64,000 bases of DNA from Eledone cirrhosa (GCA_964016885.1 OZ024740.1:398040001-398104000), one strand, 5' to 3'. Counted from the stretch's first letter, positions 2,199 through 58,117 are shown. Program-made: numbers and translations. Notes: generated by a model not told the origin, from the letters alone.

Positions 2199-2480
2199 CT
2201 CTCAGATCTTGAATAATTGCCCCCCTCCCCATCATTTTTATTCCCCTCCCCCGCTTATTGAATTTTGCTAATCTATCTCCGGCAAAATTTCAAGTGATTC
2301 ATATTGATACAGCGGCTGGAGAATCTAACAATAATTTTATTTTACATTAAAAAACCCCATTATATATGAAAAAAAACAACATTACAAGAAATCGCATAAT
2401 TACGAACGTTCACTATACAATGACCAATTTCCCAGGCCCCCCTTATTCTAATCCTTCCTATTATTTGGGACCCAAGAGCA
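2199..2480. mobile_element. Tc1/pogo-like MITE, copy 1
   Basis: Ends actctcagatcttgaataa ... ttatttgggacccaagag; internal sequence similar to 9581-9895. Confidence 0.6.
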
Positions 2481-3752
2481 CCACCAAACTCTCCTCCTCT
2501 CTATGTCTATCATACACACCTCTCTTTTAATCTCACTCTTTATATCTACTACCACCAAACTCTCCCCTCTCTATATCTACTACGACCCCGCCTCTCTATA
2601 TCTAACACTATTATACTCTCCCCCTCTCTATAAATATCTATACTTATCTTTCCCAATCCCCCTCTCTATATCAATCATCCCTAAACTCTCCTCCTCCCTA
2701 TATCTACTACACGGCATTCGCCCATTATCCCACTCTCTATATCTACAACCACCAAATTCTCCCCCTCTCTATATCTAACATACAAAACACCCTCCTCCCA
2801 ATCCCTCTTTATATCAATCATCCCCAAACTCTTCCCCATCTCTATAACGCGGCATTCTCTCATTATCCCCCTTACTCACCAGCAACCCCCTCTCTATACC
2901 CAATATACAACACTTTATGATAATCCCCCTCTCTATATCTATTATACAACACTTTCTCGTAATCGTTCTCTCTCTATCCACCACCAAACTCCCACCTCTA
3001 TATCTTTTACGAAACTGTCTCTCCCAATACCCCTCTCTATATTTAGCAATATTTATCTCTCCCAACCCCTCACTATATCTACTATATCTACCATCGAAAT
3101 CTATCCCTCTCTATATCTACTACACGACACTCTTTCCCAATCCACCTCTCTATATCGACTACAAACTCTCCCCCCATCTACATCAACCATCCAACAATCT
3201 CTCCCAATGCCTCTCTCTATATAAATTAGCACCAAACTTTCCTCCTCTATATACTACACAAAACTCTCTTCCAACCTCACTCTCTATATCAAGTAACACC
3301 AAACTCTCTCCCCCTCTCTATATCGACTACACGGAACTCTTTTCCAATACCCCTCTCTATATCAATTAGCACCAAACTCTCCCCCTCTCTATATCGACTA
3401 GATGGAACTCTCTTCCAATACCCCTCTCTATATCAACTAACACCAAACTCCCCCTCTCTCTATCTACTACACGGAACTCTCTTCCAATCCCTCTCTCTAC
3501 ATCAATAAACATCAATCTCTCCCTCTTTCTATATCTACCATACGGCACCCTCTTTCAATCCATATCACTCTATAAATCACCAATCAACTCTCCTCCTCTC
3601 TATATCTACCACGACACAGACTCTTTCATCCCCCTCTCTATATCTATCTACATTTATATCTCCTAATCCCCCTCTCTATACCAATAACCACTAAATCTCC
3701 CCCTCTCTTCGTCAATTAACACTAAACTGCCCCCTCTCTATATCAATTACCA
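2481..3752. repeat. Degenerate CT-rich minisatellite (alternating ~30/~35-bp units with a ccctctctatatc core)
   Basis: Dozens of accaaactctcccctctctatatc-like units; continues at 9398-9580 beyond Tx1 copy A. Confidence 0.85.
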
Positions 3753-3945
3753 CATATAGACGTGTATTACTTCGCTCCGGATTTTTACGGATTATTGTTA
3801 AAAAAACTGTGAGTTCATTGTTCAATTTGTTAGCATTGTTTAGTTTAGCCCCTTGTCTGGGCCTTCAGACGTTGAGTCAACTAATTTTCGCCCCTTTTTG
3901 GGGCGAAATTTTCATCTCAAAACTGTGTAGACTTGGTAGTCAATA

Positions 3946-5741
3946 ATGGATGCCATTTCAACCTCGCACACTGTCGTGAGTACCACGTTCACTAAAAAAG
4001 TGGTGAAGGGAAGGTAGGAGTACAAATATTGCAGCCTTCCCCCCTCGCATTATCGAAAAACGTTGAAAATATTGAAACCGCGGAACCAAACCCGGTAAAT
4101 AATACCAGCACCAACAACAAGAACAATGACAATAACACCACAACCAACAACTGCAACAATAACAACACAAAGGAAAACATGAACAATATCAACAACAGTG
4201 ACAACAACAACAGCAACAAAAAAGACAACAACACAAAAACAAAGTTCGCACAGACTGTAAAAAAAACGAACTATACACGCCAATTGACATAACAAATGCT
4301 AAACAACTACTACAAGACGCAAAACAATACGTGACTTTTGGCGAAAACGGTGCTTTTAGCATCAATTCTCCATAGGTATTACGTAGAGAGGCTGTCCTGA
4401 AAACCACAGTTTTCAGGACAATATCTAACGAAACAGGAAAACCAGCTCAATTATCACAAAATGAAATTGAGATGGTTCTAAAAGATGCAATGAAGGACAT
4501 AACCTTCATCCAAAAAGGAAAACTGTTTGGTAGCATTTCGGTGCTAATGAATAACCAGCCAACAGCACAAAAATACTCTGTATCACCCATTGTATCCCCC
4601 CCGCTTCACCTTTTCCCCACATACAGGGGAAAAAGGACACAAAGAATAAAAATAATGAGTATCACACCAAATGTAAATATTTGGTGGATACTATGTGGAT
4701 TCATTGACTTTGATGAAGACAGGATAATTTCAGTAGGAAAGTCCTCCGTAGAAGTTCTGGTGCAAATGAGACCAGAACGAATAGCGAATATCCTACAACG
4801 CGTGCCTCTGGACGGGCTAACTTATATAAACATTTCAGTGGAGGGAAGGCGGCCGTCATGTTACCACTGCTTAAGCAGGGGTCACGTGAGGGCTGCCTGT
4901 CCTCAATTAACGAGTAAAAAAAAAAGGCTCTTCTGCCAACCCCGAACACAACAACACATATACCACCACCACCACCACCACCACCACCACCACCACCACA
5001 ACAACAACAACAACCACAACAACACGGAAAAATAACAACACAAGACACTGTTCCACCCAACCCCCTCCCCACCTAAAACAAATACAAAAGCAACCACAAC
5101 AAAACCCCAAAATATACCCCTCCCCAACAACACGGAGGAGGACTCCGTATCAACGTCACCAAGTGACGACGAGGGAGAACCCTTTCAACAGGTGAAAAGG
5201 AAAAAAAAAGGCACCACATTAACAAAAATGCAGCAAACACACAACTACCAGCACAAACATCACAAACATCCCAAACAAAAAAACCCACCCCTCCCGAAAA
5301 CATAACACATACTACAAAACGCAAACACGCACAAGAACAACAAACACAACACAACAAAAACACTATACATACATTAACAAGAACAATACAACTTTGATGA
5401 AAGCAATAGACGACAACCCTTCGGTGGAAACCGAAGGGATCACTTTCACCTACGCAGCGGACAAACCGCACCTAATGATGATTAGGGTCGCAACGGAAAC
5501 CTATGTAACTCTGAAAAAGAACCATCCAATGCATGTGGTGACCACCTGCACCAAACCACTTAACCGCGTCCTATTGAGATGTTTCCCCACCACCACACCA
5601 GACACCCACACCCCACCAAACACCCCAATCCCACCACACACTGATGTCCTCACCCCACCACAAACCACCACCCCACCAAACAACCCTTCCAACACCCCCA
5701 TGGAAATTGTGCAGCCTGGTCCCCAGGAGACGAAGAGGTAA
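3946..5741 (+). pseudogene. Tx1 copy A ORF1 (gag-like, frameshifted)
   Basis: Fragments 4029-4292, 4472-5035 (CYHCLSRGHVRAAC) and 5394-5741 are homologous to the 622-aa ORF1 of copy E. Confidence 0.85.
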
Positions 5742-5782
5742 GTAATTTCCTTTCCTCTTCCTTTTAACTCTTCAGCACCAAC

Positions 5783-9149: not shown

Positions 9150-9580
9150 GTGAGAGAGGAGAAGAATGAGAAGAGTAAGGAAGCACCCGCTCTTTGTGCT
9201 CCTGAAGAGGAGGGTTGCACCATTTTTCGGGGGTGTGTGCGACCCATGTCAACGCCCCTCCCTATTGAGGACATCGATTGTTAAATTTAATTTGTTATAT
9301 GTTTTTTACACGTCTTTTTAAATGTATGTAAACTCCCCACCTTTGTATTTGTCCCAATCTTTGATGCCCTGGTGGCAAATAAATAGAAATATATATCTAA
9401 CATACAACACTCTCTTTCAATACCCCTCTCTATATCAATTACCACTATACTCTCCCTCTCTCTATATCTACCACGACACTGTCTCTCTCAATACCCCTCT
9501 CTATACTAATTACCACTACACTCTCCCTCTCTATATATCTACCATACAACAGTCTCTCCCAATCCCCTCTCTCTATCAAT

Positions 9581-9895
9581 TACTCTCTGGTCATGAATAC
9601 CCACTCCCTATTAATTTTTCCGATTTTTTAACCCTTCCCCGCTTTCATTCTACCCCCCCCCCCCTTATTAACATTTTCTAATCTACCTCCGACGAAATTT
9701 TATTGTGATTCATATCGATACAGCAGCTGGAAAATCTAATAATAATTTTATTTTATATTAAAAATACATTATATATGATAAAAATAGAACATAACCAGAA
9801 ATTGCATATTTACGAAAGTGCACTATACAAGTCCCTCCGCTTATACGAATTTAAGAAAATGTCAACCCACCCCTATTATTTGGGACCCGAGAGTA
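9581..9895. mobile_element. Tc1/pogo-like MITE, copy 2
   Basis: TA-ctctctggtcatgaata ... tatttgggacccgagag-TA terminal inverted repeats. Confidence 0.65.
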
Positions 9896-20329: not shown

Positions 20330-22345
20330 TTTTGGCGGTAGTCTCCTTCCTCCTATTTTCGAGACAGTGTGAGATTGTCTTTAGAACTGCTGGACTAACA
20401 ACCTAGTACAGACGGTACAGGATGATACAGTCTTTCGTCCTGGCCACCAGACAGATAAAAACTGCCTCTCTTCCTCATCTAAAGGAAGACGGTGGGGCGA
20501 TCTTCACAATGGACTCAGTTGATATTCGGATCCGTACGTGACAGCAGGTGCTCGACATAAACCCACAGGTCAGCAATACTCGGACACTCTATGATGCAGG
20601 GCGGTTTCATTGCCCTGTGCGCACCTCGGGCAAATCCGACTGATGGCACTTCCATGCCTGTAGAGTTTATAACGAACTGGTAAAATTCCTCGGTAGCACT
20701 ACCAGGCCAGAGATTTCTGAAAGTTGTCCATGGGCCCTGGACCGAAAGTCCTCTGGAAAGAGCGGCTAGTTGATTTTCGTCAACGTCCAGAGTCTCCCCA
20801 AGGACGTCGTCGTTCTTACCTTCCACTAACATCTAAAGAATGCTAAGGTGGAGTTTCCACCGATCGTACTGTCCAATTGGCTGAGAGCTGTGAACGCTTG
20901 AAGACATTCCAGTCTCCAAGCGCTCCATCTCGGTCTTCGCTTGACCCAAGATTGCAGCTCTGTTAAGGAGAAAAAGGTGTCTAGCGAACGGCGACTAAAC
21001 CTGTTCACCATCAAGAAAGGTTGGAGATGTTGTAGCCTGAGCGCCTGACGACGCTGTTGGACGGCATGGACATGCCTCTCCAGGTGCCGAGCTGCAGGCC
21101 CACTGACATTTCCTGGTTAGGTTTTGCTCCTGTTACCGCCTAGTACTCCCTGAGAGTGGTACCAATCATCTGAATGTGTTTGGTGTCTGACATCACTACG
21201 GTGACGTCGTCGGCATATGCACATCTCCCACATCCTAGTTCGCGCTGGATGCTCCTCAACATCTCCAATTTGTGTAGTAATGGCTGAAGCGTCAATACAT
21301 ACAAAAGGGGCGAGAGGGGACAACTTTGGTGGGCCAAGCACATGATGTTGAATGGTTCCGAAAGGTAACCGTTCATTCTAACCATAGAGCAGATGTCGCT
21401 GTGCATTGCAGTGATTCAGCCCCTGAAAACGAGTTCGAAGCAGGCTGCGTTGAGGACGGCTGCGAGGTAGCGGTCGACTCTATCGAAAGCCTTTGATTGA
21501 TATACATTGAACAGAGCACCACTCGTTCCAGGTTCCTTAACCACCCTCTCTATGATGTATCGCATGAGGTGGAGGTTGTCGTTGATGGATCTGTTCCGAA
21601 TGGCGCATATTTGTGCCACCCTTTACTAGACCACCGACGACAAGCGCCACTCTCGTTGCTAACACCTTGGCAAAAATTTTAAACTGTGTTTAGCAGAGTT
21701 ATGGACCTGGAATTGTCTATATGGTCCGCCTTGTTTGGGTCCTTTCTCAGCAGCGCTTCCGCCCCTCGACTCACAGAACTGTGAATTCTCCCGTTCTGGT
21801 GCTAGTTGGCGTAGACGTCCGCTAAGATGTCGCCAAACAAGTCTGGCATGTTTGTGTAAAGCTCGTACGGCAGATCATCTAAGCCAGGGAATTTGCCCCT
21901 CGTGCAGCTAGCCATTGCGTCCCATATTTCTTCGGCTGTTATCAGTTTTTCGCAACACTCCACCTCCCTCGCCGAGAGCCGTGGTAGGCTCTGAAATCGA
22001 TCGCTCGATCCGATCTGCCACCGCTCCAGAACATTTGAGCGAAGTGTCGCTGAAAACCCTCACACATTTGCTTGGGATCAAGTACCATGCGCCCGTTGTG
22101 GTCCTCCAAAGATCGGATTATGACGTTGTTGCCACGCCTTACGTCTGCCACTCGAGCCCATTGAACAGCTTCCGTACTCTCGTGTCTAAGATCATGCGCC
22201 TTAGCTCTGACAACGCAGCCTTCGTGCTTAGCATTGAAGAATTAGTTCAGGACCAATCTCACCACGAGAACGTTGGCTGTGATGACTTTAGTAAGTACTT
22301 CTAGGTACTTAGATCTCCCTCTACTCTAGTTTTCTTTATCGTTAC
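20330..22345 (-). mobile_element. Old degenerate Tx1-clade LINE fragment (RT region)
   Basis: Minus-strand peptides RSINDNLHLMRYIIERV, SKAFDRVD, CPLSPLLYVLTL and AYADDVTV with many stops. Confidence 0.9.
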
Positions 22346-25372: not shown

Positions 25373-25639
25373 TATGATATAAGTCTACAAAGTACTAGGG
25401 ATTTAAAATAAATTGCAAAATTTAGTAGCGGCAGCTAAGGTGAAATGGAATAAAGTCTATCTTGTGAGTCAGAAAATGTATGTATCTATGGTGGTTTCTA
25501 ATGGCGTTTTGAAATGATGAATAATAGAGGCTTAAAACAAAGCAAGTGGATTTCAATAGGAGATGAGGATGTAAAAGCTTTGCAAATCAACTCAGATATT
25601 TCCAAAGGTACCAACAGGGTTTCCAATATGTGCCATTGT

Positions 25640-26525
25640 GGACCTGGTCAAACTGCATAGGGTCATCCAGGTCGTATCTAGATTGGGTATATTGTAGAGA
25701 AATAGATAGGGATAGTGTAGACTGTCCACAATTTAAAGCGATCATAAATTCGGGATCTGTACAGTCGACTTAGATAGGTTCCATAGACAGGAGCCAAGTT
25801 ACTGGAAGCTGGACGCGCAAAGATTACAGAGACCGGATCAGTGAATTAATTAAATGGGCATTGACAGGGAATGTCGTCAACAACAGACGACGGGGGCCCT
25901 GAAAAGGGTCACTAGAGTAAAATCCACAAGGTTTAGAAACGTACTAGAGATAGAAAAAATAGTGTAGTGACAATTATAAATCTAGAAGAGGCATTTAGGA
26001 AATGCATTGTGACTGATGAAAAGTTCAATGAGCCTAAGTGGTGGCCGCACACCGTGGAAACAAACCCAGGTATTTGGCTGACAACAACGAACCTGTGCTA
26101 CTCATTCCGAGCAGATGTGTTCGGGACGAGCGGCGAGTTGGATTGCCGGATAGACTTCGAGCCTACCTCGACTACCTGCTGCGACTCTCGGCAACAGAGA
26201 CAGTAGTGCGAAAGACCAATGACAGGTCATGAAATATGGGAGCCAATAGTTGGCTGCACAAGGGACAAATTGCTTGGTTTAGAGGGAGGGTCTGACCTAC
26301 AAGTTTTGCGTTTACATGCCAGACTTGTTCAGCAACAACGTAGCAGACATCTTTCCCAACTGGCAGAAAAATGGGAGTATTCCCAGTTCCGTGAACCAAG
26401 AAGTGGTGGCTCTGCTGAGAAAGGACCCAAACAAGAGTGGATCACAAAGATTACTTCGGACCCATAACTCTGTTAAATGCAGTGTTCAAGATTTTGGCCA
26501 TGGTGCTAGCAATGACGTTGTCGCA
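25640..26525 (+). mobile_element. Old degenerate Tx1-clade LINE fragment
   Basis: SYLD, YWKLD and MPDLFSNNVADIFPNWQKNGSIPSSV..VVALLRKDPNK are homologous to Tx1 ORF2. Confidence 0.85.
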
Positions 26526-29399: not shown

Positions 29400-30268
29400 C
29401 TTCAGAAACTCTAGGCATCGAGGAGAACGAACTGACTAGTCTGTTCCGGAGGACTTTCCGTCTAGGGCCTATGGATAACTTCCAGAGGTTCTGGCCTGGC
29501 AGTGCTACCAAGGAGCTCTACCAGTTAGAGACAAAATCTACAGGCACGGACGCCCTGGCAGAGATCCTGCCTAAAGGACCTGTCCAAGATGCGAGCAGGA
29601 CATCGAAACCGTTCTGCACGCAATTGTTCAGTGCCCAGGGGTGACCGACCTGTGGAATTATGGCGAACAGCTACTGTCACGTGTGGGACACATCCAGTTG
29701 TCAGCCGAGTCCATCGGGAGGATCACCCCGTCGCCTTCATTTAAGAACGAAGGAGAGGCCGTTTTCCTCTGTCTGGTGGCTATGGCGAAAGAGGTAATAT
29801 GGTGGACGAGGTTAAAAGGACTGAGGGCAAACACCTTTCTCTCCGTACAACAACTTATCCCCTTCTTTAAGTACCACTTCAGAAGGAAGGTGAGAGTAGA
29901 GAGAGCGGTGCTACAACCCAGTAAATTCGCTGAAAGGTGGGTGAATGTGGCGAAAATGGCCCGAGTGAATGGGCCTTCTCTGTATATAAACCTGTAGCTT
30001 GAGGAAAACAAACAAAAGGAAGACGGGAACACCTAGAAAACGTGCTCCTGGTGTTGAAGGTTGTTCTATCTACGGGGTGTAAAACAACCCCGCAGTAACG
30101 TTCCCTCCTATTGGGATTTCGATTGTTTTATTTTATATATAGTTTATTGTTATATATAGTTTATTGTTATTGTAAGATTTTATGTAAAACCCCCGCCGTC
30201 ACGTCTTGTAGTGTCCCATTTTTGTACGCCCTTGTGGCAAATAAACATATCTATCTATCTATCTATCT
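29400..30268 (+). mobile_element. Tx1 copy B (5'-truncated; closest to copy E)
   Basis: ORF2 C-terminus ...RVNGPSLYINL*, 3'UTR resembling E, AATAAA, (TATC)n. Confidence 0.92.
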
Positions 30269-32505
30269 TAGTCAGGAAGGACGAAAATAAGGGGGATGAC
30301 AGATAACTTCAGGCCCATAACTCTGCTAAACACAGAGTTACAGATTTTGGCCAAGGTGTTGGCAAAGAGGCAGGCGCTTGTCGCCGAGAACCTGGTGGGA
30401 GAAGCGCAGACATGCGCAATCCCGACCAGGTCCATACACGACAAACTCCACCTCATGAGATACATCATAGAGAGGGTAGGGTGTGAACCCGGCTTCGGTG
30501 GGGCCCTGATCAACTTGGATCAGTCTAAGGCTTTCGATAGGGTTGACCATCGTTACCTGGATGCGGTGCTCGAGACGGCAGGCTTCGGACCCGTGTTCAG
30601 GGGCTGGATTGCTACAATGCACAGCAGCAACATCTGCTCAAGGGTCAAGGTGAACGGCTACCTCTCGGAGCCGTTCCATATTACGCGATCCATTCGACAG
30701 GGATGCCCTCTCTCCTCCCTTCTGTACGTACTGACTCTCGAGCCACTACTGCGGAAGTTGGAGCTATTGCAGGGCATCCCTCTGGAACCGGGACTGCGTA
30801 AAGCAACCTCGGCCTACGCCGAGGACGTGACAGTAATGGTGTCGAGCGCCTTGCAAATCGAGGAAGTCGGCACCTTACTGAAGGAATACGAAAGTTTCAC
30901 AGGAGCGAAGCTGAACCGGGACAAATCCATCGGTTTGCAACTCGGATCGTGCAGAGGAAAACCGATGCCTTCCGATGGCGTCTTCGGACGCTGGACGGAA
31001 GGACCGGTAAAGCTGCTCGGGGTCTGGTTTGGTCCGGACCTCCAGGTGGAGAAGAACTGGAACGAGGTGACGGCCAAGGTGTTTTCACTCACCCAGAAGT
31101 GGGCCGAGTGCAAACTATCCTTAAAAGGTCGAGCGGAGGTGGCGAACACTTTTATAGCGTCCGCCATCTACTACCGCTTGACCGTCGTGCCTTGTCCAGC
31201 CAAAACGCTCACCAAAATGGAGCGCGCGCTCTTCCAATTCCTTTGGAAGAGGCGGGCTCCTTTGGTGAGGAGATCCATCTGCTGCCAACACCCTTCCAAC
31301 GGAGGGCTGGGAATACCGTGGCTGACGATGCGCAAACACGCGCTCAGGCTGCGGTATCTCTACGTATTCCTCACCGGACAACCGGTGTGGGCCTCGTTCA
31401 TGAGGCGAGCCTTCCCACGACTCGTCTCGCTGACCGAGCTGTAGTTCTGGGTCAAGCAAAGACCGAGGAAAATGGGCGACTGGCACATCGAATGTGCTCA
31501 GGCGCTCACAGCCCTCTTGCAGGCGGACCCGGTGATCAGTGGAGACTCCACTTCGTCATTCTATAGAGGGTTGATCCGCAGCAAGTGCGACGACGCGCTC
31601 GGTGAAACTCTAGGCGTAGAGGAAGATGAACTGGCCAGTCTGTTCGGTAGGACCTTCCGTCCGGGACCGATGGACAACTGCCAAAAGTCCCTGGCCTGGC
31701 AGTGCTACCGAGGAGCTCTACCAGCTCGAGACAAGCTCTACAGAAATGGGCTCCCGGGCAGGGACCCTGCAAAAAAGATCTGTCCGAGGTGCGTGCGAGA
31801 CGAAGAAACCGTCGCGCACGCATTCATACACTGCCCCGGCGTCACCGACCTGCGGAGCTATGTAGAACGACTATTGTCGCGGGTAGGACAATCATGTTGA
31901 CCACCGAGTCCATTGTCATGATCAAACCGCCACCCCCCTTCAAAAACGAAGGAGAGGCGGTTTTCCTTTGTGTGATAGGTATGGCAAAAGAGGTTGTATG
32001 GTGGACAAGGTTGAAAGGGCTGAGGTCAGACACCTTTCTCTCCGGCCAACAACTGATTTTTTTTTTTTCAAATACCACTTTAGAAGAAGAATCAGGATGG
32101 AGAGAGAGGTGCTGTACCCCAGCAAGTTTTATGAAAGGTGGGTGAAAGTGGCGAGAATGGCCCGAGTGAATGGGCCTTCTCTCTATATCAGCCTGTAGGT
32201 CGAGGAAAAAGAGGAAGAGAGGAAAGGAGTACAAACTCTTCGTACTCCTGGAGATGAGGGTTGCACATTTTTTCGGGGGTATGTGTTACCCATATGAACT
32301 ATCTCCCCCTATTGGGGAAAATCGACTAATTTTTAAATTGCATTTGTGATAATATTTTACACGTTTTTATTGTATGGAAACTTCCCTCTTTGTATTTGTC
32401 CCCTTCTTTTGTGCCCCCGTGGCTAATAAAGAAACATATCTATCTATCTATCTGTCTATCTGTCCGTATATATATATATCTGTCTATCTATCTATCTATC
32501 TATCT
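30269..32505 (+). mobile_element. Tx1 copy C (5'-truncated, RT to 3' end)
   Basis: NFRPITLLN, QGCPLS, YAED (mutated YADD), CCHC, stop at 32198, AATAAA, (TATC)n. Confidence 0.93.
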
Positions 32506-32719
32506 GGACACATGTGCTGAGCTCGCTCGGTAAGTTTTTGTTTAAATTCATACGGAAATTGTAAACTGTAAACTTTCATTTTTGTACCATTTTGTAGAGG
32601 GACTGCCAGGTCAAATTTTGATCTGGTCGGTCTCTCAAAATATTCTGCGCCTTTGGGCGAAATAGTATTGTGAACATTTTATCTTTCGAAAAACTTCGAA
32701 AAACCCTATTTTGAGAAAA

Positions 32720-34572
32720 ATGGCTGAACCATCTTCACCATCAATCAAAGAAGGAAAGGGGAAGTCATACTCACAGCTTCCCCCTGCCACTGTCACAGCA
32801 GCAGATGCCAAAGGCAGAGGTCAGAGAGAGGAAGAATTGTCTTCACCTGTTGACCGACCACTAGATGTAGCCACAACTACACAAGAATTTGAAAACAACA
32901 ACAACAACAACGACAACAATAAAGACAACAAAAACAACAACAACACAAACGTCACAAGTATCCACACACGAAACGAGAAAGACAACAACAACAACAAAGA
33001 TGAAAACAACTCAAACGACGAGAAACAAAACAATACTAATATCCAAAACGAAAACAAAATATCTTTTGCACAAACGGCTAAATTATCAGTCGCTTATGTG
33101 CTGGAAGATATTTCAAAAGCAAAAGAAATGCTGGAAAAAGCCAAGAAATATGTGTCTTTTGGCGAAAACGGTTCGTTTTCTATACATTCACCTCCGGAGC
33201 TAAAAAGACAGACGGAATTACGAACTGTCGTATTCCGAACAATTTTAAATAAAACAAAGAAACCAGCGCAACCATCTCAAGCGGAAATTCAGTTAGTCTT
33301 GAAAGACACGATGAGAGACATCACTTTTATACAAAAGGATAAACTCTATGGGAGTTTATCCATATTGATGAAAGACGAATTGGCGGCAAAAAAATACTCT
33401 GTGTCGCCAATTCGGTCCACACACTACACCTTCTTCCCCACCTACATGGGTAAAAAAACCCAGAGGATATGGATAACCACCATCACCCCAAACATAAACT
33501 ACTGGTGGTTACTAACCGGTTTCCTCAATTTAGACGAGGACAACCTCATTTCAATAGGGAAGGCATCCGGCGACGCGTTCAGTGGAACGAGCCTCGAAGT
33601 TCTGACCCAAATAAGGCCAGAACGCATCGCCCAAATCCCTGAGCGCGTCATGCTGGATGACCGTACCCACCTCAACATTATTGTGGAGGGTAGGCGTCCC
33701 TCCTGTTACCTCTGTGGCAATAGAGGTCACCTGAGGGCTGCCTGTCCCCAGCTCACACAGAAAAAAACACTGCTACCAACACCAACACCACAACAAAAAC
33801 AACCACAACAACAACAAAAACCAACAACCCCACCACCACCACCACAACAACAACAACAACAAACACGTGAAAAAATAACACAGAATACTGTCCCACCCAA
33901 TCCCTCCCCACCCAAAACAAATACAAAAACACGCACACCGCAAACACTACCAGAAAACATACCCTCCCACCCAACAAGGAAGACGAACCTCTTTCGTCGC
34001 AAGACGAAAAAGATCCCTTCCAACAAGTAAAAAGAAAGAAGAGGAGACGCACCACAGACACACATGTTAACTTTAACCCCCCCCCCACAAGAGAACACAA
34101 ACTACACACAAACCACCCCTCCCTGTCACACAACACTAACTGCTACACAAAAAAAGACCTTACAATACACATACATGAACACAGACAACAAAGAATTACG
34201 GAAAACAATTTCAGCAAACCCTTCGGTCCAAACTGAAGGGCCAAACTTTATAACTGCTGTGGGACTACCTCATTTGAAAATGATAAAAGCCCCAATGCAC
34301 TTGTACAAAACACTGAAAATAAATTTCACGGAGGACGTGGCCCCCCCCCCCCCCCCTGCGACAAACCAATCAACCGCGTCCTCCTAAAAAAATTCACCCC
34401 CCCCCCCCACGCCCCCACCCCACCCCACCCAGACACCCACTCAACGACAAACACCCCAACCCCACAACACACCGATGCCCCTTCACTTCCACAAACCACC
34501 ACCCCACCCAACAACCCATCCCCAACCAGCATGGAAATTGAGCGGCCCGTTTCCCGGGACGCAGAGAGGTAA
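32720..34572 (+). pseudogene. Tx1 copy D ORF1 (CCHC gag-like; frameshifts in the distal low-complexity part)
   Basis: ATG at 32720, CYLCGNRGHLRAAC; pieces 32720-34030 and 34064-34387, and a C-terminal MEIERPVSRDAER*. Confidence 0.85.
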
Positions 34573-34596
34573 GTGCCTTTTCTCTTTACCACCAAC

Positions 34597-37500
34597 ATGG
34601 CTGTGCTAAGAGTAGGGTGTCTAAATGCGCGTGGCCTGGGCTCGTCTTGGAAGCAAGCAATGCTTCTAAATGACCTCAGGTCACAATCTATAAATGTGAT
34701 GGTTATCTGCGAGGCCCGGATCAGCAGCATGCGACAGCTAGCCCCCACCTTTGACGACTTTGAGATGCACGCATCTCTCTGTCAGCCCGGAGGTGGGGGT
34801 GGGGTTGTCGTTCTGCTGCAAAAACATATGGGCCTTGCAACACAGATAGTTCACTTGGACCCAGGGGGTCGACTGGTGGTGCTGGACCTTGGCAGTGGTG
34901 AAGGTAGAGCCTTTAGGCTGATAGCCGCATATGCCCCTTTTGGGACAGAGCGGCCCGACTTTTTCCAGCGTCTGGAGTCTTTTCTAGGGACGTCCCGTTC
35001 CCTGCTTTTAGTGGGGGATTGGAATGGTATCCTGGATGCACGTTGGGACTATGCAGGGGCATGTCCCGATAGAGAGGGGTGCAACAGCCTCAAGGGGTTA
35101 CTCGGCCGATTTGACCTGGCCGATAGATTTCGACTAGATTTTCCGACGGTGCCAACCTGGTCTTGGTCAAATCGCAGCGGATCATCTAGATCGTACCTAG
35201 ATAGATTTTTAGTTAGAAATAAGGACAGGGACTTTTTAAGCTGTCCAGAAATGCTCATAGTTGGCTATTCAGACCACAAGTTGGTGACCTGCATGGTCAA
35301 CCTTGATAGAACGCATAGACAGGGCCCCGGTTACTGGAAGCTCAACTTGTCCTTGCCGGCAAGTAGAGCCTACAGGAATCGGATTAGTACGTTAGTTAAG
35401 GAACGGTTGACTGGAGTGATCGTCAACAGCAGGTGGTGGGTATCTCTAAAGAGAGAGATTAGAGTAGTCTCGATTGAATTTAGTAAGATTCTAGCTGCGG
35501 ATAGGAATAGGAAGGAAAGGGAGCTAATAGATAGAGTAGAAGAGGCAATTAGAAGCGGCGACGTGGCCAGAGTGCTAGCGTCGAGAACGGCTTTGAGCCA
35601 GTTTTTCGACGCGAAGCACGAAGGTTGCGTTGTCCGAAGTAAAATACGTGCTCTAGGGAACGAGGGGACCAAAGCTGTTGGCTGGGCCCGCGTGACAGAG
35701 GCCAACAGTGGAACTAAATCCACCATCCGGTCTTTGCGAGACCTGGATGGACGGGCGATTCTTGAGCCTAAGCAGATGTGTGAGGCCTTTCAAAGGCACT
35801 TTGCCCGACTGTTCGGGAGGGGCGGGGAGCCGGTTGGGAACGTGGACTTCGGTCCATACCTCGACGGCCTGCCGCGCCTCTCGGACAGGGAGGCGAAGTC
35901 CTGCGAGGAGCCGATTTCGGCCGCTGAGATAGAGGACGTGCTGAGCCAATGCGGCAAACGCAAATCCCCGGGTCTCGATGGTCTTCCTTACGAATTATAT
36001 CTAGCTATGCCGGACTTGTTCCCCGATCTCCTCGAGGCGGTCTACTGCAACTGGCAACAGAACGGGAGAATTCCCTGTACTGTGACCAAGGGCGTAGTCA
36101 CGCTAGTGAGGAAGGACGAGAACAAGGGGGACGAAATAAGTAACTTCAGGCCCATAACTCTGCTAAATACAAAGTTACAGATTTTGGCCAAGGTGCTAGC
36201 AAAGAGGTTGGCGCTTGTCGTGGGCAACCTGGTGGGAGATGCGCAGACATGCGCTATCCCGTCCAGGTCCATCCATGACAACCTCCACCTCATGCGATAC
36301 ATCATAGAGAGGGTTGGGAACGAACCCGGCTTTGGTGGGGCTCTGATCAACTTGGATCAATCTAAGGCGTTCGATAGGGTCGACCATGGTTACCTGGATG
36401 CGGTGCTAGCGGCGGCAGGCTTCAGACCCGTTTTCAGGGGCTGGATCACTGCTATGCACAGCAGCCGCATCTGCTCTAGGGTCAAGGTGAACGGCTACCT
36501 CTCGGAGCCGTTCAAAATCGCGCGGTCCATCCGACAAGGGTGCCCTCTCTCCTCCCTTCTGTATGTGTTGACTCTCGAGCCACTACTGCGGAAGTTGGGG
36601 TTGTTGCAGGGCATCCCTTTGGAACCGGGATTGCGGAAAGCGGTGTCAGCCTACGCCGATGATGTGACAGTAATGGTGTCGACGGCCTCCGAAATCGAGG
36701 CGGTCGGCACCTTACTGGAGGAGTACGAAAAGTTCACAGGGGCTAAGCTGAACCGGGACAAGTCGATCGGTTTGCAACTCGGCACGTGGAGGGGCAGACC
36801 GATGCCCTCCGATGGCGTCGTCGGACGCTGGACGGAGGGCCCGGTGAAGTTGCTCGGGGTCTGGTTCGGACCGGACCTCCAGGTGGAGAAAAACTGGGCG
36901 GAGGTTACGAACAGGGTGTTTGCACTGACCCAGAAGTGGGCCAGTTGCAAACTATCCCTGAAAGGTCGGGCGGAGGTAGCGAACACTTATATAGCGTCCG
37001 TCATCTACTACCGCCTGACCGTAGTGCCCTGCCCAAGGGAAACCCTCACCAAGATGGAGCGCGCGCTCTTCCAATTCCTTTGGAAGAGGCGGGCTCCTAT
37101 GGTGAGGAGATCCATCTGCTGTCAACACCCTTCGAAAGGAGGGCTGGGGATGCCGTGGCTAATGATGCGTAAACACGCATTAAGGCTACGGCACCTCTAC
37201 GTATTCCTCACCGGACAACCGGTGTGGGCCTCGTTTGTGAGACGAACCTTTCCCAGACTCGTCTCACTCACCGAGCTGCAATCCTGGGTCAAGCAAAGAC
37301 CGAGAAAACTGGGCGCCTGGCACACTGAGTGTGCCCAGGCGCTCACCGCCCTCTGGCAGGCGGATCCGGTTATCAGTGGAGACTCCACCGCAACATTCTA
37401 TAGAGGGCTGGTACGCAGCAGGTGCGACGACGCCCTCGGAAAAGCCCTAGACATGGAGGAGGACGAACTGGCCAGCCTGTTCGGTAGGACATTCAGCCCG

Positions 37501-38034
37501 GGACCTATGGACAACTTCCAGAAGTCCCTGGCCTGGCAGTGCTACCGAGGGGCTTTACCCGTTCGAGAAAGGCTCTACAGACACGGGCGCCCGGGTAGGG
37601 ACCCCGCCAAAAAGATCTGTCCCAGATGCGTGTGCGACGAGGAAACCGTTGCACACGCATTGGTACACTGCTCGGGCGTAGCCGATCTGTGGGGCTATGT
37701 CGAACAACTGCTGTCAAGGATGGGACCGATCCGGTTGACCACCGAGTCTATTGTAATGATCAAGCCGCCTCCCCCCTTCAAAGATGAAGCAGAGGCGGTG
37801 TTTCTGTGCGTAATAGCCATGGCGAAAGAGGTTGTATGGTGGACGCGTCTGAAAGGACTGAGGTCAGGCACCTTTCTCTCTGGCCAACAACTGGTCCGTT
37901 TCTTCCGATATCATTTCGGAAGAAGGATCAGGATGGAGAGAGAGGTGCTGCACCCCAGTCGTTTTTATGAAAGGTGGGTGAAAGTGGCGAGAATGGCCCG
38001 TGTGAATGGGCCTTCTCTTTACATAAGCCTGTAG
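34597..38034 (+). CDS. Tx1-clade ORF2 polyprotein: APE endonuclease, reverse transcriptase, C-terminal CCHC (1145 aa)
   Basis: Kozak-like caccaacATGg; GCLNARG, YAP, GDWN, YLDRF, YSDH; SPGLDG, NFRPITLLN, KAFDRV, RQGCPLS, YADD, LLGV; CPRCVCDEETVAHALVHC. Confidence 0.95.
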   Translation: MAVLRVGCLNARGLGSSWKQAMLLNDLRSQSINVMVICEARISSMRQLAPTFDDFEMHASLCQPGGGGGVVVLLQKHMGLATQIVHLDPGGRLVVLDLGSGEGRAFRLIAAYAPFGTERPDFFQRLESFLGTSRSLLLVGDWNGILDARWDYAGACPDREGCNSLKGLLGRFDLADRFRLDFPTVPTWSWSNRSGSSRSYLDRFLVRNKDRDFLSCPEMLIVGYSDHKLVTCMVNLDRTHRQGPGYWKLNLSLPASRAYRNRISTLVKERLTGVIVNSRWWVSLKREIRVVSIEFSKILAADRNRKERELIDRVEEAIRSGDVARVLASRTALSQFFDAKHEGCVVRSKIRALGNEGTKAVGWARVTEANSGTKSTIRSLRDLDGRAILEPKQMCEAFQRHFARLFGRGGEPVGNVDFGPYLDGLPRLSDREAKSCEEPISAAEIEDVLSQCGKRKSPGLDGLPYELYLAMPDLFPDLLEAVYCNWQQNGRIPCTVTKGVVTLVRKDENKGDEISNFRPITLLNTKLQILAKVLAKRLALVVGNLVGDAQTCAIPSRSIHDNLHLMRYIIERVGNEPGFGGALINLDQSKAFDRVDHGYLDAVLAAAGFRPVFRGWITAMHSSRICSRVKVNGYLSEPFKIARSIRQGCPLSSLLYVLTLEPLLRKLGLLQGIPLEPGLRKAVSAYADDVTVMVSTASEIEAVGTLLEEYEKFTGAKLNRDKSIGLQLGTWRGRPMPSDGVVGRWTEGPVKLLGVWFGPDLQVEKNWAEVTNRVFALTQKWASCKLSLKGRAEVANTYIASVIYYRLTVVPCPRETLTKMERALFQFLWKRRAPMVRRSICCQHPSKGGLGMPWLMMRKHALRLRHLYVFLTGQPVWASFVRRTFPRLVSLTELQSWVKQRPRKLGAWHTECAQALTALWQADPVISGDSTATFYRGLVRSRCDDALGKALDMEEDELASLFGRTFSPGPMDNFQKSLAWQCYRGALPVRERLYRHGRPGRDPAKKICPRCVCDEETVAHALVHCSGVADLWGYVEQLLSRMGPIRLTTESIVMIKPPPPFKDEAEAVFLCVIAMAKEVVWWTRLKGLRSGTFLSGQQLVRFFRYHFGRRIRMEREVLHPSRFYERWVKVARMARVNGPSLYISL

Positions 38035-38436
38035 GTGGAAAAGAGGAAGGAACGAGGGAGCACCCCCTCTCTGTGCTCCTGAGGAAAAGGGTTGCACACT
38101 TTTTTCGGGGGTGTGTGCGACCCCCCAAGGCGCCTCCTCTCTATTGAGGATTTTGTTAAAAATTTTATTTTTTGTTATATCTTATTTTATTTTTATATTT
38201 TGTTATTGCCTCCTCCTTATTGAGGACGCCTTTTTGTGTAAACTCCCCCCTTTGTACTTGTCCCACTTTTGATGCCCTAGTGGCAAATAAAAGAAACATA
38301 TCTATTTATCTATCGAACTACCTAACTTAGTAAACTTACCTGCTTGTTTATGCACACAAACGTGCATAGAAAGATACACAACATATTTATATATGGGATC
38401 ACAGATGGCCGAGTGTGTGTATGTATGTATGTATAT

Positions 38437-39727: not shown

Positions 39728-42700
39728 CAGAGACAGAAATAATCGGGCTGGATGCCCGATCGCGCAGTTAAACCACTGGGAGTGAAGAACCCCTAGCCCT
39801 TGTCAGGGCATTCTTCTAGGAGAAGGCATCTCAGGAAACTGGGTTAACTCCGACATAAAACCTGCGGCTCAGTAGTTACCGATGATGTTGATCTTTTCTT
39901 CTTTTCGGGTTATAGCTACTGTCGCTGCTCAGAGAGTGGGATTGGCTCAGTGCACAGTCTTTCCTCACTTTAAAAATATTCGTCACGCACAGGCATTGCA
40001 GGATCGCATTAATTAATAATTATTAATAGTGTATTATTATTATTATTATTATAATTATTATTGTTACTATTATTATTACTTTTTTTTTTTTTTTTTCAAA
40101 ATTCAATGATGTTCCAGAACAATATAAAAGTGATAATTGGCAATTTAGGTTCTGGAACAAAAAAGATAATTGGCAATAAGGGCAGGGCCCCCAGGTTATC
40201 ACACCCTGGGTCCGCGCGTCATCGTGCCATTGTAATAGAGCCAAACAAGGCATTTAGTCTTGGCTGCTGGAACGTACGGACGCTGCTTGACAGAGATTCC
40301 TTGGAGCGTCCTGAACGAAGGAATGCTCTTGTTGCAAAGGAGCTTCTACGTTACGATCTTGACATCGTGGCTTTATCTGAGACGAGGTTAGCTGGAGATA
40401 GTCATCTTACAGAATTTTGTGGAGAATATACATTCTTCTGGAAAGGAAGCGATGAAGGAACCAGAAGAGAGGCTGGGGTAGGATTTGCTGTTAAGACTGT
40501 TCTTGTGAATAAATTAGAAGAATTCCCAGTAGTGATTAGTGAGCGTCTTATGTCCATGAGAATTCCGCTGGACAAAGGAAGATATGCGACCCTGGTGAGT
40601 GTGTATGCTCCAACTATGAATTCTGTCGATGAAGAAAAAGTGTCCTTTTACCATGCCTTGAAAGGTGTTTTAAGAAATATCCCTCAGGCAGACAAAGTCA
40701 TCGTGCTTGGTGACTTTAATGCTAGAGTGGGTAGGGATTTTAACACATGGAATGTAATCGGAAGTCATGGGGTGGGAAAGTGTAACAGCAATGGTATGCT
40801 TCTGCTGCAGATGTGTGAGGTTGGATCTGTGTGTTACCAACACCATGTTCCAACAAAAGAACAAATTCAAGACCACATGGATGCATCCTGCATCTAAGGA
40901 ATGGCATCTTTTGGACTACGTCCTAGTCAGGATGCGTGACAGACAGGATGTGCAGTGTGTTCGTGCTCTTCGTGGAGCTGAGTGCTGGACGGACCACCGC
41001 ATGGTGCGCGCAAAAGTGAAACTAATCACTAAACGTAAAATCTGGGCTTCTGGTGTTGCCCTGCTCAAAAGATTGAATGCTGCTCGTCTTAAGGATAAAA
41101 ATGTGAAGAGGACATTGGAAGAAGAGATGCAGGCTGCAGATTTTGGTTGAGATTGGCCTACCCTTAAAAAGTCGGTTTATGATGTAGGCAGGCGTGTTCT
41201 GGGATTGGTGCAGAGAAAACATCAGGACTGGTTTAATGAGAATGATGTACATATAGAAGACTTGTTGGCTGATAGGAGGCGTGCTCTGTCACGCTACTTG
41301 ACGGCAAAACCACGTTGCATGAGGAACTCAGGGATGTAAAATCACGTGTTAGGCGGAGTCTTTCTCAAATGAAGGATCAGTGGTGGAGTGAGAAGGCTGG
41401 TGAGATACAAACTGCGTCAGATTCCAATAACACAAAGCTGTTGTACAGTCTCTTGCGTGAGGTTTATGGACCGTCTTCTCTGGTGACACCGCTTCGCAGC
41501 AAGGATGGCAAAGAACTTCTTCGTGACTCACAAGGAATTCTACGAAGGTGGCGAGAGCACTTTGATGATCTTTTGAATCAGCCGTCAGTCGTCAGTGAAG
41601 ATTTCCTCAATCTCATTCCAGAAAGTCCTGTGAAAGTAGCTCTCGCAGAACCTCCGACGCTTGTGGAGGTTGCAGTGGCAATCTCGAAGCTGAACAGTGG
41701 AAGGTCTCCAGGTATGGATGGCATACATGCTGAGCTCCTACAATATGGTGGTGAGAGACTCCTGCAACATCTTCACTCTTTGTTTGGCAGGATATGGGCA
41801 AATGAATCCGTACCTGAGGACTGGAGAGATGCAGTAATGGTGGTCTTGTACAAGGGAAAGGGTAACAGGAATGATTGTGGGAACTACAGAGGTATAACAT
41901 TGCCTTCTGTCGTAGGGAAAGTTTTATGTAGGGTGCTTCTGGACCGTCTGCTGACACACATTGCAGATTGTGTTCTTCCTGAAAGTCAATATGGTTTTCG
42001 TGCTGGACGCGGCACTACTGATATGATCTTCTCAGCTAGACAGCTCCAGGAGAAGTGCATAGAAAAAGGTTTGGATCTGTATCAGGTTTTTGTCGATCTG
42101 ACAAAAGCTTTCGATACTGTTAACAGAAATGCATTATGGAAGGTTCTCCAGAAACTTGGTTGACCTGATAAGTTCCTTGCTTTAGTTAGGTCTTTCCATG
42201 ACAACATGAAGGCTTGGGTTAATGTCGGAGGTAACATGTCGGAGCCTATCTCAGTAAAAAAAAATGGAGTGAAACAGGGGGGATATTCCAGCACCGACCC
42301 TGTTTGTCATATACTTTGCAATGGTTTTCTGTATTGCATTCAGGAATTGCGAGCATGGTGTTTACATCCGATATCGAACCTCAGGCAGCATATTTAACAT
42401 CAGGCGCTTTGCTGCAAAGACAAAAGTATTTACATCAATCATAAGAGACCTCTTATATGCAGATGATTGCGATCTTGTAGCGCACACAGAGAGTGATATG
42501 CAGCACATTTTGAATGCATTTTCTGACGCTTGCACTGCCCTAGGATTGACTGTCAGTCTCAAGAAAACCGTCGTCAGGTACCAACCTGCCTCTGGTAAGC
42601 AGTGCAGAAACCAAATATCTATGTGTATGGTAAACGACTTGGAATGGGTGATCAGTTTGTCTACCTGGGAAGCACTGTCAATCGATACAGCAACCTTGAT

Positions 42701-43845
42701 AGTGAAATCTCACTTAGGATTAGGAAAGCAAGTGATACTTTCGGAAAGCTAGAAAGGCGACTCTGGGGTCGGCGAGACATATGCAAGAAGACAAAGGTAA
42801 AGGTGTACAAGGCATGCGTACTCTCTTCTCTTCTTTATGCCTGCGAGACCTGGGTCACATATCGACACCACCTTAAGCAATTGGAGCGTCTCCATCAGAT
42901 GTGTCTCAGACGGATCCATGGCGTTCACTGGAGGGACCACATCAGTGATATCGAGATTTTGGAAAGCTCTATGTGTGACAGTATAGAAGCTCTTGTGCTT
43001 AAGCAACGACTCCGTTGGAGTGGTCACCTTGCCAGGATGAAGGATTCTAGAATACCAAAACAACTCTTTTATGGAGAGTTAGTTAAAGGAAAACGACCGC
43101 CACATAAACCAAAAAAAGAGGTATAAGGATTCCTTGAAAGCCTCTTTGAAAGACACAAACATCTCTGCTGATACACGAGAAAATATTGCTGATGATCGTA
43201 ATAAATGGAGAAAGACTGTATATGAGGGAAAAGTTGCCTTTGAGGCATCTCGAATCGCATACGAGAAAGTAAAGCGGGGTGTGAGGAAGGGCATTGCTGT
43301 TGCACTTCCAGACGGCGAGGGTCCTCCCATGGTGCTGACATGCAGCGTCTGTGCGAGACTCTGCCTAAGCAAAGCTGGACTCGAAAGTCATCTTCGCAGT
43401 CATAAAGTAAGACCAGTGGTTGACTACCAGGCTGCTGTTGGAGATGCTACTCATCATGCTTGCCAAACATGTGGTAGAGAATGTAAATCAGCAGGAGGGC
43501 TCAAGCGACATGCATAGGTACATGAACTCTAACCACAGCCGGCTATTCCCAGTGAATGTTTTGGTTGCCGACTCTGTGCAAGACATTTTAGATCATTGGC
43601 TGGGCTAAAAAGCCACATTCGATCGCAGCGCTGTTAGTTGCTATCGTGTGTGTGTGTGTAGGTGTGTTTGTGTGTGTGCGTGTGTGTATATATATATGTA
43701 TATGTATATTATTATTGTTGTTGTTGTCGTTATTATTATTATTAATATTATTATTATTATTATTATTGTTAATATATATGTATATATAAATTTTTTTTTT
43801 CGTGCAATGGCCATACTCGATAACGAGAGGGCAGCCATCATGTAT
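39728..43845 (+). mobile_element. Full-length RTE (BovB-like) LINE, decayed, with (TATG)n tail
   Basis: 5'UTR, a single APE-RT ORF, C2H2 fingers, 3' stem-loop actcgataacgag, (TATG)n at 43840-43921. Confidence 0.92.
40107..43637 (+). pseudogene. RTE ORF (APE + RT + three C2H2 fingers), frameshifted
   Basis: WNVRTL, LSETR, VYAPT, GDFNARVG, WTDH; SPGMDG, NYRGITL, ESQYGFR, KAFDTV, GVKQG, YADD, YLGS; CSVCARLCLSKAGLESHLRSH, CQTC..H, CRLC..H. Confidence 0.92.
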
Positions 43846-55988: not shown

Positions 55989-56207
55989 CTCTTTCTGTCT
56001 AACGTGTGGAATATCGCCGGTAAGTTTTTTGTTAATTTCTATGCAAAAAACCGATCTAATTGTTTGAAAAAAATACAACACTTTGTAGATTAACCCCCAA
56101 GCTGAATTGTCAGCCGGGTGGTAATCCCATTTTTCGCCCCTGTAGGGGCGAAAATTTTATTTAAAAGTTTGTTTTAAAATATCAAATTTTACAAAGTAAA
56201 AAAAAAC

Positions 56208-58076
56208 TTGAGCAACACTAGAACGCTGGAGAACGTTAATAGAGAAAAGAGAGAGAAAGAGGCAGATATTAACGTTATATCTGCTTCTGCTGCTATGGAC
56301 GTTGCCATAGATACTGTCACAAAAGAAAAAAATATATCAACATTTGAAAATGTTACAATTTCTACCGCCGAAGCGGAGAAAAATGACAATAACACACGGG
56401 AAAACACGGCAAAAAAAAAACCCATTGACATACATACACATGAAAAAGACATCAACAACTCTACAGATACATCTACACATAAAATTTCCAACAACGATAA
56501 CATCATTATTAACAACAACATCACACAAAAAAAGAAAATGTCTTTTGCTGACACAGTCAACAAGAAACAAGGTTTTATAAATCTTGATATCTCCAACGCA
56601 AGAGATATGCTCCAGCAAGGGAGAAAATTTGTAACTTTCGAAGAAAGAGGTGGGTTTAGAATTAACTCACCCCTTGAAATAAAGGAAGACACAAACCGCC
56701 GATCAGTCACTTTTAGGACTGTGTCAAATTCGTCAAGAAAACCGACATTTGTTAATCAGTCAGATATAGAAGATTCTTTCAAGGAGATTCTAGGAAATGT
56801 CGATTTTCTCCAGCGAGGAAAACAGTACGGAAGTGTTTCCGTACTGTTTAAAAGCGAGGCACTGGCCCCAAAAAACTCTGTGACACCAATAGTGTCAAAA
56901 GCATACACCTTTTTCCCTACATACATGGGGAAAAGGACACAAAAAATAAAAATAAAAAACATACCTCCAAGCATTAACATCTGGTGGATCTTGGCTGGCT
57001 TCGTAGAGCCAGAAACATACATAATACTTTCGATACGAAAATCCATTCGACAAAGGTGGGCGGGCACCGATTTGGAGATTCTGTTGCAAATGAAACCGGA
57101 GAGAATCTCCAAAATACCCGAAAGAGTCGTTATTGATAATAACAACAAAATAAACATTTCGGTAGAAGGAAGAAAATTTCACTGCTTTCGCTGTGGTAGC
57201 ACATCTCACCTAAAAGCCTCTTGTCCACAAACACACAACAGCAACATCATAAAAAAAACGCTATTACCAACACCAACACCAAAACAACCACCACCACCAC
57301 CACAAGTACAACGACAGACGAAACGAGCAACCACACCAAAACAAACAGACACTCAACCAACAACAACAGAAAAAACAGAGACAACACCTCTGAAGAACAC
57401 ATCCCCACTCCATCCCACTCCATCAAACACTACCACAAACACACATACCGAAACACCACCACCACCACACAACATACCCTTACCCCACACACCTGACGAT
57501 GATTATTCATCGACGGATGAAGCTGCTTCTCCTTCTTTAAGTGAAGAAGAGGGAGAACCGCGGAAATCCAAAAAACAAAAAAAGAGACACCACAAAACCC
57601 CCAAAACTCCAATCACCAACACCAACACACAACCACAGACACAAACAACACCACAGTCAAACATCCCCCTATCAGCAAAACCAGCACCAACACCACCCCA
57701 AACACAAGCACCCACCATAAAAAGAAAACTCCCGGATGAACAACAAACTAAAACAATACAACAAAAACACAAACAACAATACGCATACATCAACACAAAC
57801 AACAAGAGTTTGATGGAGGTCATCTCCCAAAACCCCAAGGTGGAGACGGAGGGCAAAACTTTCGTCAAGGCAGAATCGTCTCCACACCTTAAACTTATAA
57901 GGGTTTCTATGGAAACCTATAAAGACCTGAAAATTAAATTTTCACAGGACGTGGGCAACCCCTGCCACAAACCCATCAACCGCGTCCTGTTGAAAGGTTT
58001 CCCCACCCCACCCAACACCCCATCCAGCACCCAAATGGAGATTGAACAACCCGATCTCCAGGAAACGAAAAGGTAA
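56208..58076 (+). CDS. Tx1 ORF1 gag-like nucleic-acid-binding protein (first ATG at ~56295)
   Basis: Open frame of 622 codons; CFRCGSTSHLKASC knuckle; P/T/Q-rich linker; conserved C-terminus. Confidence 0.85.
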   Translation: MSNTRTLENVNREKREKEADINVISASAAMDVAIDTVTKEKNISTFENVTISTAEAEKNDNNTRENTAKKKPIDIHTHEKDINNSTDTSTHKISNNDNIIINNNITQKKKMSFADTVNKKQGFINLDISNARDMLQQGRKFVTFEERGGFRINSPLEIKEDTNRRSVTFRTVSNSSRKPTFVNQSDIEDSFKEILGNVDFLQRGKQYGSVSVLFKSEALAPKNSVTPIVSKAYTFFPTYMGKRTQKIKIKNIPPSINIWWILAGFVEPETYIILSIRKSIRQRWAGTDLEILLQMKPERISKIPERVVIDNNNKINISVEGRKFHCFRCGSTSHLKASCPQTHNSNIIKKTLLPTPTPKQPPPPPQVQRQTKRATTPKQTDTQPTTTEKTETTPLKNTSPLHPTPSNTTTNTHTETPPPPHNIPLPHTPDDDYSSTDEAASPSLSEEEGEPRKSKKQKKRHHKTPKTPITNTNTQPQTQTTPQSNIPLSAKPAPTPPQTQAPTIKRKLPDEQQTKTIQQKHKQQYAYINTNNKSLMEVISQNPKVETEGKTFVKAESSPHLKLIRVSMETYKDLKIKFSQDVGNPCHKPINRVLLKGFPTPPNTPSSTQMEIEQPDLQETKR

Positions 58077-58117
58077 GTGCACCTTTCGTCCTTTTTCTCC
58101 AACTTTTCTTCACCAAC

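Follow-up and report, generated by a model that had tools for sequence, protein, structure and literature searches.

The window, a stretch of 64,000 nucleotides from Eledone cirrhosa, carries five related LINE copies on the plus strand (A, B, C, D, and E) together with two decayed fragments, and it returned no matches in Rfam. An earlier note on this DNA had labelled the copies Tx1 and proposed that ORF2 is bracketed like an intron, with a donor at the ORF1 stop and an acceptor at the ORF2 stop, so that splicing would leave an mRNA for ORF1 alone. The features of copy D and of its relatives are collected in Table 1.

Table 1. Features of the LINE copies, in window coordinates.
Feature	Position	Strand	Remark
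Copy D, full-length, very young Tx1-like LINE of the L1 superclade	32503..38314	+	Sits between (TATC)n tracts
(TATC)n tract that forms the tail of copy C and served as insertion target for copy D	32437..32505	.
Intron-like leader segment of 68 nt with donor, U-rich run, and YAG	32530..32597	+	Retained in all genomic copies examined
ORF1 of copy D, CCHC knuckle	32720..34572	+	Frameshift near 33962-33965
ORF1-end 5' splice donor consensus AG/GTAAGT	34567..34574	+	Candidate intron start 34569; likely U1 site
Inter-ORF spacer of copy D, pyrimidine-rich, without AG	34575..34596	+
ORF2 of copy D, intact, 1145 aa (APE endonuclease, RT, zf-RVT)	34597..38034	+
Possible acceptor inside ORF2 (nt 414; codon 138 is a fixed TTA)	34993..35011	+	Putative
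Conserved hairpin	37989..38017	+	3' arm is the pyrimidine tract of the earlier note
Two possible acceptor AGs	38026..38034	+	38026-38027 (in frame with a phase-2 donor); stop AG 38033-38034
3'UTR of copy D	38035..38300	+	AATAAA at 38286, then TATC-type tail
Copy A ORF1-end donor	5736..5743	+	Copy A 5'UTR donor 3809, acceptor 3868
Copy E ORF1-end donor	58071..58078	+	Copy E 5'UTR donor 56020, acceptor 56088
5'-truncated copies B (29404-30261) and C (30269-32446)	29404..32446	+	Head to tail, ahead of copy D

Element families and their targets

Copy D belongs to a very young family, in which 40 of 40 scored junction matches are 100% identical over 191 nt; the end of its ORF1 is matched exactly at 242 loci in the genome. 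The ORF1 of copy D is frameshifted, the frame being open in two of the four sister loci checked. The ORF2 of copy D matches PF03372, PF00078, and, below the cut-off of that model, PF13966, and its best PDB match is the human L1 ORF2p (E 1e-47; R2 2e-18). A separate, open ORF1 with a CX2CX4HX4C knuckle was found at loci L034, L040, L042, L107, L112, L113, and L121 and in copy E, the Pfam zf-CCHC match in the ORF1 of D reaching only E 0.0025. The element is an ordinary microsatellite-targeting LINE of the L1 superclade. The Tx1 label is provisional; anatomy and target preference agree with it, the near homologues carrying no names and the tree holding no named Tx1 row. Target preference is common in the Tx1 clade and is not defining for all of its members.

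A genome search anchored on the ORF2 start alone returned 983 junctions, 100 of them listed, and a second search used an outside protein that was 40% identical (150 scored, 30 loci). Sixty longer loci, picked by hand, were fetched, and the family representatives (n = 16) have ORF2s 63-89% identical to that of D, or 52-86% at four-fold sites. In a quick tree these 16 form two clades, one of (TATC)n and one of (ATT)n: (TATC)n flanks occur in the clade of D, (ATT)n in families H, I, J, and K, and minisatellites of about 70 bp at F1 and A, the F1 copies being preceded by theirs. Family J is the largest, with at least 7,544 3' ends.

Within the window, (TATC)n tracts adjoin copies B to E, and copy A was inserted in a 71-bp minisatellite rich in CTCTATATC (2480-3750 and 9390-9583) and not in plain (TATC)n, which suggests a target shift within the clade. 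Elsewhere, full-length F1 and J copies stand in head-to-tail arrays with a spacing of 5.7-6.9 kb (G000:C1:4238250-4255748, locus L034; C1:423365113-423418069; C1:55427394-55453334). Loci L052 and L053 share the same ORF1 end and have different 3'UTR types, and the ORF1 end of L064 is chimeric; recombination between families is therefore indicated. At 40055-43630 there is an unrelated LINE, broken and presumably RTE-like, which encodes endonuclease and RT and is 25% identical to the ORF2 of D, and older decayed fragments of the same LINE group lie at 20409-22254 (minus strand) and 25561-26524.

Splice-like sites along the element

The consensus AG/GTAAGT reported in the earlier note at 5736, 34567, and 58071 is present at each of these positions, which are the sole three on the plus strand of the window, and in copies A, D, and E the ORF1 stop does fall within the donor. 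By eye, GTARGT stands in about 85 of the 100 ORF2-start junctions listed out of the 983 in total, the remaining ones comprising three truncated inside the spacer and others that look like single-copy mutants; a separate junction set has the donor in 40 of 42. AG/GTARGT marks the ORF1 end in 16/16 representatives (with CG instead of AG in J1), and G/GTARGT lies 25-47 nt upstream of the ORF2 ATG in all 16. Over the 5.5 kb of sense strand scanned, there is no second AG/GTARGT in 12 of the 16, and three have one more. Variation between families is confined to A/G at +4, and A/G changes at +3 and +4 of a donor are tolerated by U1. The site lies in phase 2 in most families (13 representatives), in phase 1 in H, Ia, and K, and in phase 0 in Ib, where ORF1 continues for nine codons beyond it. 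Being found in all three phases of ORF1, the donor is therefore no by-product of the stop codon. It is a genuine, conserved signal, and this half of the proposed intron has held up in every one of the 16 families and in both clades.

Pairing of the donor with the spacer has a mean of 0.73 against 0.66 when shuffled and is not family-specific (own -9.5, cross -9.4 kcal/mol); a specific hairpin masking the donor was rejected, the pairing being compositional. A role for the spacer as acceptor of an mRNA with ORF2 alone was likewise rejected as a general feature, an AG before the ATG having been seen in family I and copy A only. Ahead of the ORF1 stop by 13-16 codons, most families conserve a Met-Glu/Asp motif (34531-34572 in the window; absent in J), possibly a short upstream ORF for ORF2 reinitiation. 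Two further donor-like sequences were noted. AG/GTGGGT occurs in the R-W-V codons near the ORF2 end (37973-37981) in 10 of 16 families and is lost where the arginine is AGA, and a perfect consensus on the minus strand just past the 3' end of D (38334-38341) is probably due to chance or derived from the host.

A second donor, missed in the earlier note, lies near the 5' ends of the elements and opens an intron-like segment of 59-70 nt. The combination of donor, U-rich run, and AG 59-70 nt on was matched in 15 of 18 leader types, where shuffled sequences would give 2.9, or in 13 of 18 without one alternative that was added to the regular expression after the data had been seen. The three misses are F1 (a misplaced start; F1 does have the donor), one divergent H leader, and K. 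Many of these segments contain a branch-like site, the donor varies between families by A/G at +3/+4, and the young family F1 has CAA in three of three copies at the acceptor position where related leaders have AG. The leader has a fold z of -3.1, and strong hairpins lie between the leader acceptor and the ORF1 ATG (32596-32660; 56130-56155; 3890-3910). One D copy (L127, G000:C2:131603100) has a 44-nt deletion inside the segment, GT and AG both being kept. Within about 25 nt of the 5' end, at 32506-32515 and in other leaders from many families, there is a short GAC(A/G)(C/T)GTG-like motif, which we take to resemble the downstream promoter element of insect LINEs.

At the ORF2 end, the pyrimidine run and TAG-ending terminus described earlier at 9149, 29997, 32198, 38034, and 61559 are present in all five copies. 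The "branch-like" site placed ahead of them shows no match to the branch consensus yUnAy, and all five copies fall in a single clade. Within the other, H and I have a decayed tract, and the ORF2 of J stops in TAA and lacks an AG at that point, apart from an AAG 7 nt further on. When the roughly 250 AGs are ranked by pyrimidine content, the stop AG takes a place between 1 and 32 in 13 of 15 families. D and E have a further AG 7 nt ahead of it, and in 10 of 15 representatives such an AG is in frame with phase-2 donors. The pyrimidine tract, real as it is in the five copies, is nevertheless explained by Pro-Ser/Thr-Leu coding and by the 3' arm of a hairpin with z -3.4 (0/200 shuffles). The fold z is negative in 15/15 families (-0.9 to -4.8), and the hairpin is invariant, without compensatory changes, and weak in E, H, Ib, and J2. 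By four-fold identity, the last 20 codons of ORF2 rank 40th of 226 windows. Normalised by amino acid, codons 1124-1138 are the fifth most synonymously conserved of the non-overlapping windows and codons 1131-1145 come 75th of 1131, and the synonymous excess therefore centres on the hairpin; high four-fold conservation at codons 156-220 largely vanished under the same normalisation.

Judged from sequence, the ORF2-end acceptor is weak, and it consists mostly of coding sequence and an RNA hairpin, likely a 3' RNA element. In the larger family set, conservation beyond coding constraint was found for the donor and not for the branch site, tract, or AG of an ORF2-spanning intron. With the acceptor absent in J and weak in H and I, the claim of ORF2 as an exact intron is not conserved, and it is unproven. 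One point speaks for the model of the earlier note, against its own remark that the ORF1 extension after splicing differs between copies. In 7 of 16 families (F1, A, F4, F2, H, Ib, and K), reading on in the phase of the donor meets a stop within two codons of the ORF2-end AG, against 3/32 off-phase and a background of 6.7%; the families are not independent, and on the tree the seven represent no more than three or four independent events. At the stop AG, D, F3, E, F7, F8, and F12 would instead gain 27-78 codons, and in J 113 or at least 150 codons would follow the nearest AG.

Spliced copies and readings of the donors

Retrotransposed copies lacking exactly ORF2, to which the earlier note had looked for a trace of splicing, were searched for in the genome, and none was found. 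At the ORF1-end donor of D, two pattern searches, whose junction patterns leave out far sides beginning AT, CT, or TT, gave 0 spliced against 242 unspliced; two acceptor variants proved to be point mutants that keep ORF2. Family-wide gap patterns for ORF2-less copies gave one match (equal to the control), none, and none. In J, with patterns ending in the letter D that see about three quarters of matches, no spliced form was found among 49 and 36 variants against 4,290 unspliced; the variants were mutations, small deletions, or chance matches, and three odd matches were no J junctions. The same kind of pattern gave 0 spliced at the ORF1-end donor of F1 (F1 without a copy count of its own) and, at the J1 leader donor, 0/23 and 0/71 variants spliced against 2,391. 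For the leader donor otherwise, 0/9 variants were spliced, all of them keeping donor and AG, against at least 806 unspliced, and the D-type leader gave one variant, which was unspliced. The test of the A/F4-type leader returned 18 matches against 14 in the control; three are point mutants, the others among the matches listed look like another repeat, L137 and L138 only provisionally so. SpIRE-like loss of the leader intron was not found in the copies searched.

Contigs of coded runs of unrecorded kind had no GT..AG joint among the 15 joints listed (four runs; 220 more), nor had run X4 among all seven joints at 90% likeness; contigs drop rare variants, and absent joints were not counted as evidence. 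X4 has greater depth over the 3'UTR and also, when set against X1, over ORF1, contig depth being unable to rank the parts. As for the genomic copies, LINE proteins prefer their own RNA in cis, and spliced copies make up about 1.8% in human L1, according to the accessible text of PMC5860796. The absence of ORF2-less copies is weak evidence because cis preference would hide ORF2-less RNA, and the absence of leader-spliced copies is strong evidence because such RNA keeps both ORFs.

At both places the donor is conserved, the acceptor can be dispensed with, and the template is unspliced. U1 loading on a template RNA whose splicing is not completed is the simplest account. The reading we tentatively prefer, and would place just short of probable, is that the conserved donors are U1-binding sites on an RNA that retrotransposes unspliced. 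The donors of the leader and of the ORF1 end would load U1 snRNP on the RNA that is copied into the genome without splicing. By analogy with the copia element EVD, bound U1 would support full-length transcription by promoter-proximal stimulation and by keeping 3' ends from forming early, before ORF1 and before ORF2, and such RNA as is spliced would form a minor pool or would not serve as template. For EVD, the available portion of the source describes a U1 role without splicing on unspliced RNA, with U1 also blocking early termination (PMC5580714). The U1 reading is favoured by donors conserved across families independently of the ORF1 frame and by labile acceptors, such as the TAA of J at the ORF2 end and the CAA of F1 in the leader. 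It is also favoured by the absence of spliced copies at the leader donors, where cis preference offers no explanation, and by the negative fold z of the ORF2-end hairpin in all 15 families. Against it, the full intron anatomy of the leader in most families would be superfluous for a pure U1 site, and the in-phase stops past the ORF2-end AG in seven families speak the same way, as does the hairpin, invariant without compensatory changes and weak in the families named above. Protection from early polyadenylation is, moreover, poorly motivated for the second donor because ORF2 contains few canonical poly(A) hexamers, and in 7 of 15 families it contains none.

In an extended form of the model of the earlier note, a separate RNA pool would lose both introns and become an mRNA for ORF1 alone with the 3'UTR still attached. 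Unspliced RNA would make ORF2p and be the sole template, and the ORF1 stop would be rebuilt from beyond the junction. We regard this as possible, if somewhat unlikely. It draws on the perfect donor just upstream of the ORF1 stop, the high pyrimidine rank of the stop AG in 13 of 15 families, the upstream AG in frame with phase-2 donors in 10 of 15, the rank of codons 1124-1138 in synonymous conservation, the seven families in which a stop lies within two codons in phase, and the LTR precedents EVD and BARE, and cis preference would conceal ORF2-less RNAs from the genome. However, the largest family, J, has the donor and no AG at the stop, six families would acquire 27-78 extra codons, the tract is coding and paired in the hairpin, no ORF2-less genomic copy was found, and it must also be assumed that RNA spliced in the 5'UTR alone never arises.

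A motif that is merely donor-like, serving as a DNA- or RNA-protein site or as a signal for ORF2 termination-reinitiation, appears doubtful to us. Zero spliced copies would suit it, as would a site that precedes a short spacer and a strong ATG context and that can pair with the spacer. In the accessible parts of the sources, the human L1 donor lies in a RUNX3 site (PMC5860796) and reinitiation is described in SART1 and L1 (PMC5972666). Yet the identical consensus is found again in the 5'UTR, a place where reinitiation has no bearing, the stop of Ib lies nine codons beyond the donor, and the donor-spacer pairing is not family-specific. Less likely again, and in our view improbable, is splicing of the ORF1-end donor to an acceptor inside ORF2 (nt 414, window 35011) with early termination, resembling the short intron of copia shGAG. 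This AG is found in 14/14 families, and has the top pyrimidine content of 90 conserved AGs, and codon 138 is the sole fixed TTA among 60 Leu-invariant columns. It was chosen after the fact, though, and depends on a single synonymous column, which codes for part of a hydrophobic catalytic strand; the windows around it, at rank 307-570 of 1131, are without synonymous excess, a conserved poly(A) hexamer is lacking downstream, and no matching genomic copy was found.

Significance and comparison with known elements

LINE RNA is both mRNA and template, and one would on that account expect selection to purge splice sites, or else dead spliced copies to accumulate. In these elements, two donors are kept across divergent and very successful families, with zero spliced copies among thousands. 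Either U1 acts in LINE expression independently of splicing, as in the U1-loading account preferred above, or the RNA splits into translated and template pools, which, if true, would address how ORF1p comes to exceed ORF2p. That excess is a standing question. Were the ORF1-only mRNA real, a LINE would be using the spliceosome like retroviruses and copia, and two introns would be carried without loss through thousands of retrotransposition events. The literature searched holds no ORF1-only spliced RNA or conserved donors in Tx1 elements, Repbase, subscription papers, the HAL1 paper, and supplements being sources that may bear on novelty; the two conserved, never-lost donor sites are a real feature, apparently undescribed.

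Penelope-like elements keep a 5' intron through retrotransposition; they are of another order and have other enzymes than the present LINE. Among Tx1-clade microsatellite LINEs, the accessible text on Kibi, Koshi, and crocodilian Tx1 describes the same two ORFs, APE-RT ORF2, and microsatellite insertion (PMC4494074); the present targets, (TATC)n and (ATT)n, differ from theirs, and that text makes no mention of splice signals. Human L1, also of the L1 superclade, is alike in having a conserved, mostly unused 5'UTR donor, the origin of SpIREs, and differs in its about 1.8% of spliced copies against 0 in more than 3,000 here; in the portion of the paper available, its donor is attributed to the RUNX3 site and no conserved ORF1-end donor is reported (PMC5860796). 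The ORF1-only L1 derivatives HAL1 match the predicted product of ORF1 plus 3'UTR, as far as the available part of PMC5753468 describes them, and HAL1-like copies were not found here. Alike in arrangement of the donor are EVD shGAG of Arabidopsis (PMC5580714) and barley BARE1 (PMC3735527), which, in the sections of these papers that could be consulted, have a conserved U1-type donor at the end of a gag-like gene and an intron retained in full-length RNA. These LTR elements have a single ORF and a short intron, and their spliced RNA has been demonstrated, whereas the present element is a two-ORF LINE with a labile acceptor, known here from genomic sequence.
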